Shown here: positions 34,129-34,959 of the stretch, piece by piece
Numbering within the stretch: position 1 is the first letter of the stretch
How the letters are laid out: each line of letters starts with the position of its first letter
Source: Schmidtea nova
Taxonomy: Eukaryota
Direction: 5' to 3'
NCBI GenBank assembly: GCA_044892505.1
Contig: CM097883.1
Location: 259,222,001 to 259,286,000, forward strand
Length of the DNA stretch: 64,000 nucleotides
Program-made: the position numbers and the translations under genes
Notes under the pieces: generated by a model
Database searches by the model: none
What the model saw: only the letters and a program-made list of their open reading frames with translations
What the model was told of the DNA's origin: nothing

Positions 34129-34227
34129 TTCCTTCATTACCCAAATCGAAACGTCACCATCTTTATCGAAAGGAGAAAATGCTTCTTTGAATTCAGCAAT
34201 TTGCTCTTCTGTTAACTGATCAGCCAT
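34129..34227 (-). pseudogene. CaM: Calmodulin 5' fragment in the 5' LTR; supplies the ATG of the long frame
   Basis: Identical to 28623-28721. Confidence 0.9.
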
Positions 34228-34959
34228 ATTAGATTTTCAAAATAGTTCACACTTTGAAATTAACGTTTTAATTTCAATCCAAATCAAAATTCGAAGAAAA
34301 ACAAGAATCCAGTAATAATAACTTCCAAATTATAAAACTAAATTCGAATCAAATTCAAAGCTTCCTCTAAATTCCATAATCGAAACCATATTCAAAAAAA
34401 TTCTAAATCTAAAATACTCAATTGGAGTATTCAAACAAACGAATCTAAAAATCAATTAAATCAAATTAACAAAAACTCATTCACATTAAATACAAAATTA
34501 AAATGACACATTTTGAATTATTCGATAAATTCCAGTCGTTTTATAAAGCAGGAAAAATTATTTGTCTAACAACTGATGGATTTATAATAGCGGATGACGA
34601 AGAGAGTATAAATTATATTGACAAAAAACTCTCCGAAAAATAAATCAATTTAATAAAATGCACCACAAATAGCCAAAGTTTGCTCAGNNNNNNNNNNNNN
34701 NNNNNNNNNNNNNNNNNNNNNNNNNNNNNNNNNNNNNNNNNNNNNNNNNNNNNNNNNNNNNNNNNNNNNNNNNNNNNNNNNNNNNNNNNNNNNNNNNNNN
34801 NNNNNNNNNNNNNNNNNNNNNNNNNNNNNNNNNNNNNNNNNNNNNNNNNNNNNNNNNNNNNNNNNNNNNNNNNNNNNNNNNNNNNNNNNNNNNNNNNNNN
34901 NNNNNNNNNNNNNNNNNNNNNNNNNNNNNNNNNNNNNNNNNNNNNTCAACGGTTTTAAG

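Follow-up and report, generated by a model that had tools for sequence, protein, structure and literature searches.

A spliced calmodulin 5′ end in both LTRs of a Schmidtea nova BEL/Pao retrotransposon, a likely template-switch capture and likely start of a ubiquitin–Gag frame

Transducing retroviruses acquire host sequence when reverse transcription catches a spliced host mRNA, which becomes joined in frame. The cargo of these viruses is functional and internal, in most cases downstream of the gag start, whereas the element described here holds its cargo in the long terminal repeats (LTRs). In the LTR-mediated retroposition described in animals, host mRNA fragments enter LTR retrotransposons through template switches guided by microsimilarity, and one case is a Pao element; several genes can be joined, and the products can be in frame and recopied, a likeness to the present element (PMC5131818). 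Those chimeric retrocopies replace part of the internal ORFs and are rare non-autonomous loci (PMC5131818). Here, in contrast, calmodulin cargo lies in the LTR and supplies the first AUG, Gag-Pol is intact in autonomous copies (L064, L065), and cargo turns over between families.

The start of the yeast element Ty1 lies in its LTR. Ubiquitin precursors are cleaved after GG by deubiquitinases, and the ubiquitin insertion of pestiviruses serves as a host-protease processing signal. In Ty1, the GAG AUG follows a 53-nt 5′ UTR and the tRNAi-Met primer binding site (PBS, nt 95–104) falls within the coding region, so that translation through the PBS from an upstream start is not new in itself (PMC5454406). 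The Ty1 start is the element's own short conserved sequence; in the elements described here, the PBS is preceded by 85–390 codons of host cargo that can be exchanged, and ubiquitin stands between cargo and Gag. Polyproteins of cytopathic pestiviruses carry captured cellular ubiquitin directly before a viral protein (PMC13517609), but these are sporadic, dead-end RNA-virus recombinants, whereas the BEL/Pao ubiquitin is old, clade-wide and under purifying selection. The giant Burro/GYPSM1 elements of planarians encode polyproteins with host-like domains, one of them ubiquitin/SUMO-like; they are Gypsy elements of about 30 kb with N-terminal Gag and internal extra domains (PMC6431247). The elements studied here are BEL/Pao and measure 5–8 kb, and their cargo sits before Gag and inside the LTR. 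Each ingredient has precedent; the combination of a host-cargo LTR start, ubiquitin-GG and Gag was not found in the literature within reach of the search, with Repbase Reports lying outside it.

We consider it probable that the spliced calmodulin 5′ end in both LTRs is a template-switch capture and the translation start of the ubiquitin–Gag frame, with a deubiquitinase cut predicted after GG.

Architecture of the element

The window, the whole 64,000-nt stretch analysed from the AT-rich Schmidtea nova, holds a young BEL/Pao retrotransposon at 27206–34706 on the minus strand (outer ends taken from stretch L063 of assembly G000; Table 1). Its LTRs are direct repeats, 99.8% identical over 1204 nt. 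Together with their TG..CA ends, the PBS, the polypurine tract and the DUF1759 Gag, the single-ORF order of Pol domains marks the family as BEL/Pao; that order is read in the autonomous copies L064 and L065, where one frame of 2320 and 2287 aa, respectively, runs from the calmodulin ATG through reverse transcriptase (RT), Pao peptidase A17 and integrase to DUF5641. The Cys/His knuckles of the window Gag are visible in translation, a domain search of the window ORFs returned neither RT nor integrase, and the window copy is a non-autonomous derivative. Non-autonomous copies have an acidic tail in place of Pol; at 29468–29663 this tail holds 51-nt tandem repeats, and the frame stays open into the 3′ LTR.

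Table 1. Features of the element, in window coordinates
Feature	Position	Strand	Remarks
5′ LTR	33486–34706	−	1221 bp; TG..CA ends
Antisense spliced host-gene piece	34471–34657	+	exons just upstream of a WD40-coding exon; G000 C2:51.373 Mb
Calmodulin 5′ UTR, about 45 nt	34228–34272	−	in-frame stop 4 codons before ATG
Calmodulin codons 1–25, intron 1 removed	34153–34227	−	its ATG is the first in the element's long frame; partial EF-hand loop
Five tandem 114/132-nt units	33503–34140	−	deleted, duplicated fragment of host HECT E3 ligase mRNA
Lone in-frame stop	33613–33615	−	breaks the frame in the window copy
PBS, 18 nt	33464–33481	−	complementary to tRNA-Met(CAT) 3′ end plus CCA; in-frame reading GSRAWF
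Host HSP70 fragment, 624 nt	32303–32926	−	93% identical; from within one host exon
Ubiquitin region	32041–32301	−	degenerate tail of one ubiquitin (32269–32301), then whole ubiquitin (32041–32268) ending LRLRGG directly before Gag
BEL/Pao Gag, protease and acidic tail	29107–32040	−	DUF1759 (PF03564) at about 31231–31659; Cys/His knuckles; protease motif LLDDAS near 30590
Polypurine tract (PPT)	29201–29224	−	ahead of 3′ LTR
3′ LTR	27206–29200	−	1995 bp; second occurrence of the calmodulin piece, ATG at 28721; more HECT-derived units than the 5′ LTR

After the calmodulin ATG the frame passes through the HECT units, the PBS, a linker, the HSP70 piece (presumably of mitochondrial type, judging by a motif), a decayed ubiquitin tail and a whole ubiquitin, and then reaches the DUF1759 Gag and the protease motif. 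The PBS lies 4 nt past the 5′ LTR, and a tRNA-Met(CAT) complementary to it is present in the same genome; we take this tRNA to be initiator-type from its features. Genes for tRNA-Met(CAT), the type that primes this clade, form a tandem array at G000 C1:510.09 Mb (L199) that repeats every 458 bp, and the tRNA-Met 3′ end motif has 1034 exact matches genome-wide.

BEL/Pao elements make short target-site duplications of 5 bp. Such duplications flank 5 of the 16 complete family copies, those with unique flanks; the window copy lies in a microsatellite. AT microsatellite, mostly (AAT)n, makes up 40 of 56 5′ flanks of family copies by our criterion, which suggests a target preference of the family. 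Five of the 16 complete copies (L063, L064, L069, L071 and L080) differ in HECT-derived unit number between their two LTRs, which are otherwise at least 99% identical. Tandem elements, apparently with shared LTRs, are seen as three or four equally spaced LTR matches at G000 C1:77.63 Mb, C1:228.45 Mb and C2:368.38 Mb.

Elsewhere in the window, ORFs for RT plus a GIY-YIG endonuclease lie at 6651–8405 (−), presumably Penelope-like from that domain pairing; inverted copies of an RT-bearing element, about 90% identical, at 44007–46301 (−) and 56993–58411 (+); and a DDE_3 transposase ORF at 48805–49626 (−). Adjoining the element, a candidate exon at 34946–35197 (+) has no Pfam match, and we take it to be protein-kinase-like from its glycine-loop motif; the element may thus be intronic to a gene on the plus strand.

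Host mRNA pieces in the LTR

Minus-strand positions 34227–34153 encode calmodulin residues 1–25, and a PDB calmodulin is matched over residues 1–28 (E 1e-14). A motif search located two host calmodulin genes, one of which is the donor (L062): it agrees with the element at 49 of 52 nt over the 5′ UTR plus ATG and at 79 of 82 nt over exon 2, against 61 of 72 for the other gene. The donor's 55-nt GT-AG intron after the ATG, the only host intron within the captured span, is precisely missing from the element. The calmodulin-derived stretch covers about 120 nt (34152–34272), and its match to the host starts 47–48 nt ahead of the end of the ATG in 54 of the 57 distinct leaders. Upstream of the captured 5′ UTR, about 9 kb of host DNA holds nothing meaningful that matches the element leader. 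Because intron 1 is precisely absent and the match ends inside the 5′ UTR, short of the promoter, the source was spliced mRNA, and the calmodulin piece is a retrocopy.

The capture is widespread and young. All 150 scored calmodulin matches (150 scored of 222 first-look candidates) have 97–100% identity and lie across three chromosomes, paired matches occur genome-wide, and the intron-less junction forms a high-depth contig in three of four public DNA-type runs. Over the 75 calmodulin coding bases, 45 of 60 copies show no difference from the host, so the capture is recent; the calmodulin codons, with 2 shared variants, are too young to show selection. At the 5′ junction, an 11-nt word is common to host calmodulin exon 1 and a non-calmodulin LTR (L087), exactly at the junction, a length reached anywhere in 28 of 1000 shuffles; the 3′ junction shows imperfect similarity. 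Microsimilarity at the switch points is thus present, as in LTR-mediated retrocopies, given the order that we infer for the two LTR types.

The EF-hand calcium-binding loop has 12 residues. The match of the element's peptide ends at residue 25, so that of a single EF-hand it retains helix A and no more than 5 of these 12, and a role as calcium sensor appears unlikely; Pfam EF-hand finds no match in the window ORFs.

These results bear on a sequence-only reading of the same DNA, which had placed the calmodulin 5′ end inside the LTR and expected such cargo to be duplicated at each replication. Both LTRs indeed hold the piece, and paired matches recur throughout the genome. Its proposal of an mRNA origin is confirmed by the missing intron and by the end of the match in the 5′ UTR; it was right about a host intron directly after the ATG, but one intron, not several, falls within the captured span. 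As a sign of DNA-level capture it had named a match reaching into the promoter of an intron-free host gene, and instead the host gene has the intron and its promoter is unmatched. Solo LTRs exist in both forms that it had asked about, with calmodulin (6 of 9 loci checked) and free of it (2 of 4). Of the roughly 380-nt leader that it thought might include calmodulin 5′ UTR, about 45 nt is 5′ UTR and the remainder is not calmodulin. Its TATA-like words at 34586 and 34544 do not stand: they are present in 1 of the 56 LTRs examined, inside a one-copy antisense host capture, and are rejected as a family feature; in the other 55 a GCGTCTGTGTG-type motif occurs instead, one to three times in each.

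That antisense piece matches three exons of another host gene (L177:1487–1779), with introns of 47 and 58 nt absent, and the WD40-coding exon comes next on the host strand. It was seen only in the two LTRs of this element (3 of 3 candidates); other top copies align to the window leader only at query positions 1–36 and from 188 or later to 551. Near the LTR start, the repeated GCGTCTGTGTG-type motifs typical of the family have given way to the piece. Such antisense capture of spliced RNA might have come about through a switch during plus-strand synthesis. Positions 34480–34639 have no contig cover in the four public runs, and a gap there proves nothing.

The tandem units downstream of calmodulin have a separate source. 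Undeleted versions of the repeat match Pfam HECT, the 132-nt units contain AATAAA, and a protein search whose 4 distant hits were used to locate the host gene led to L119, about 95% identical, with three introns (about 49, 44 and 5040 nt) that are missing from the LTR version. Intron loss is therefore seen in three LTR cargoes: one intron in calmodulin, three in HECT and two in the antisense piece. First-look candidates numbered 1136 for the HECT query and 222 for the calmodulin query (150 scored each); 19 of 20 fetched HECT matches are without the calmodulin anchor, with longer HECT pieces or other starts instead, and 13 of the 15 HECT-matched loci that have a PBS as well as ubiquitin keep the same phase. 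Calmodulin would, on the order inferred from these copies, be a recent occupant that took over the front of an older HECT cargo. Other in-frame starts (MSQENLKLSTKGTLK, MSKCITGTLLWK) occupy the same LTR slot in L083–L085, L087, L091, L093, L095, L101 and L040/L133, the last a recombinant with one alternative start placed upstream of the calmodulin ATG; a RACK1-like gene was considered as source of MSQENLKLSTKGTLK and rejected, as no match was found. Captures of different age stand side by side in one family, with DNA identity to the host of about 80% for ubiquitin, 93% for HSP70, about 95% for HECT and mostly 100% for calmodulin.

The reading frame and its ubiquitin joint

Two things had escaped the earlier reading. 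The element's own Gag(-Pol) frame begins at the calmodulin ATG, and the clade, in which ubiquitin-GG precedes Gag, has several host-derived starts that can stand in for one another, calmodulin among them. The frame was followed in 60 loci that carry calmodulin. A long frame was part of the reason for choosing 20 of them; the other 40 are paired 5′ matches, selected without regard to frame length from a list that favours young copies (about six of its pairs were left out). Every 5′ LTR that has a PBS (59 of 59, among them 40 of 40 from the frame-blind set) shows an ATG-to-PBS distance of 2 mod 3, and this distance takes 12 values from 254 to 746 nt; as these reduce to about five step sizes (3, 99, 114, 120 and 132), a fair chance estimate is near 1 in 250, weaker than 59 of 59 suggests. 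Distances from LTR start to ATG split 10/17/18 by phase over 45 distinct lengths. ATG and ubiquitin are in frame in 51 of 57 copies, and the frame is open from ATG through GG in 46; the other 11, the window copy among them, are broken before GG.

Between the nearest upstream stop and the calmodulin ATG, no in-frame AUG occurs in any of the 60 loci. There are 2–12 other ATGs between LTR start and calmodulin ATG, so scanning might not reach it. AATAAA stands 40–43 nt before the LTR end in 59 of 59, so the cargo would fall within a long R region should transcription begin upstream of the AUG. The four public runs cover host introns and carry a tagmentation adapter; being DNA-like, they are silent on transcription start.

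Selection differs along the frame when variants common to two or more copies are counted. Ubiquitin has 2 nonsynonymous and 12 synonymous variants (pN/pS 0.05), and the first 150 codons of Gag have 6 and 12 (pN/pS 0.12); both are under purifying selection. Four single-copy stops in the Gag block show that some of the sampled copies are decaying. All 57 copies keep LRLRGG, and the RGG of the upstream ubiquitin unit is lost in 57 of 57, while the element ubiquitin differs from host polyubiquitin by 29–38 synonymous and 5 nonsynonymous codons. The HSP70 cargo has 63 nonsynonymous and 15 synonymous variants (pN/pS 1.24; 0.47–0.56 when the piece is compared with the host gene), and none of its 113 nonsynonymous variants is a stop, with 6.5% expected (P about 5e-4; 0.014 for shared variants alone). 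Judged by these counts, the leader is held open but not for its amino acids, and ubiquitin is held as a protein.

The same joint recurs beyond the calmodulin family. The RT query gave 73 matches at 79–100% and sister families at 60–64% (150 scored of 1982 candidates). From these, 20 RT-bearing loci were picked mostly for long frames (RT identity 55–100%; the RT tree covers G000 copies only), and all 20 have ubiquitin ending in GG, 19 by motif and directly before Gag and L197 by tblastn. Where PBS and ubiquitin are both present, 14 of 15 loci share the phase, and 13 of those 14 have an in-frame ATG 127–369 codons into the LTR. Ubiquitin begins with Ile in 11 of 19 RT-bearing loci and so could not supply its own start there. 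LTR cargo of the sister families includes CCT/TCP1, HECT, Vps35 and ThiF (E1-like) pieces, the linker holds HSP70 or HSP90 pieces, and the residues before GG are altered (LRLNGG, LRLCGG, MGLKGG). Two ubiquitin units are kept before Gag in L201, L202, L203 and L206, and the HSP70 piece sits inside the first unit in L183–L185; together these suggest an ancestral polyubiquitin capture that was later interrupted.

Among the best 150 public relatives of Gag, 5 have ubiquitin sequence before Gag, the top two included; in one of the 5, an HSP90 piece and a GSRA peptide are present as well. The remaining 145, many of them fragments, gave no ubiquitin match. Six that were looked up are unnamed ENA/JGI proteins, and a combined ubiquitin-plus-Gag search was dominated by polyubiquitins. 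The design of ubiquitin-GG before Gag is clade-wide.

Mechanism, alternatives and meaning

In the proposed mechanism, an abundant host mRNA would be co-packaged and copied in when reverse transcriptase switches template at short shared words, and cargo lodged in the LTR would then be copied to both element ends. Transcription would start upstream of the calmodulin AUG, with the cargo in the R region; ribosomes would initiate at that AUG and cross the PBS; and a host deubiquitinase would cut after the ubiquitin GG, freeing Gag(-Pol) from its borrowed front end. An intact ubiquitin domain ending in GG at the joint is what a ubiquitin-fusion precursor has, and cleavage is predicted. Such a cut would fix the Gag N-terminus, so any in-frame, stop-free host fragment would be tolerated upstream and the LTR would act as an exchangeable start cassette; a leader made disposable in this way would also explain the turnover of cargo.

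The frame might be translated from the LTR start with no cut at all, ubiquitin staying on as a folded domain that acts, for example, in membrane scission or proteasome targeting of Gag. Conservation extends over the whole ubiquitin and not GG alone, as this would have it, but deubiquitinase recognition itself needs the whole ubiquitin fold. The altered residues before GG in sister families could slow cleavage, and ubiquitin/SUMO-like domains do occur inside Burro polyproteins (PMC6431247). Yet GG directly precedes Gag in 19 RT-bearing loci and 4–5 public relatives, the RGG of the upstream unit has decayed in all 57 calmodulin-type copies examined, and an uncut Gag would bear 450–650 residues of variable leader; retention is an unlikely outcome. 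Slightly less likely still is that the cargo itself (calmodulin, HECT, CCT, VPS35, E1, HSP70/90) is selected, for cell-type-specific translation, self-mimicry against piRNA silencing or interference with host proteins. Many cargoes do come from housekeeping or proteostasis genes, and the calmodulin variant has spread, nearly host-identical, to at least 150 LTR copies; but chance co-packaging would most often catch abundant mRNAs too, pN/pS of the HSP70 cargo is about 1.2, the HECT cargo has undergone deletion and duplication, and the EF loop is incomplete.

That calmodulin is a neutral passenger, with Gag made from a downstream AUG (the ubiquitin Met) or a spliced RNA, finds support in the many upstream ATGs and in the Met that begins ubiquitin in the calmodulin-type family. 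It sits poorly with a phase conserved inside the LTR and through the PBS, with drifting cargo that gains no stops and with the Ile-starting ubiquitins of sister families, and we regard it as improbable. Nothing was found in favour of a capture from the calmodulin locus at the DNA level or of an artefact of assembly. The precise intron loss refutes this reading; the unmatched promoter, the 97–100% identity of all 150 scored matches on three chromosomes and the junction in public DNA-type contigs also speak against it, and we give it almost no credence.

If the favoured reading, a captured calmodulin start ahead of a cleavable ubiquitin, is extended to the relatives, a broader picture may be put forward tentatively: an undescribed, widespread BEL/Pao clade whose LTR would be an exchangeable start cassette that samples abundant host mRNAs, with ancient ubiquitin as universal cut site and swaps that may be adaptive through initiation, tissue targeting or small-RNA escape. 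Solo LTRs would then scatter promoter-plus-start-plus-host-exon units over the genome. The favoured reading would give a sequence-level account of how a retroelement keeps capturing host mRNA without loss of fitness: selection would act on frame and start, and the ubiquitin joint would insulate Gag. Captures of very different age within one family make gene capture by reverse transcriptase directly measurable. For the host genes concerned, the hundreds of calmodulin, HECT and HSP70 LTR fragments will confound annotation, read mapping, RNAi design and piRNA target analysis.
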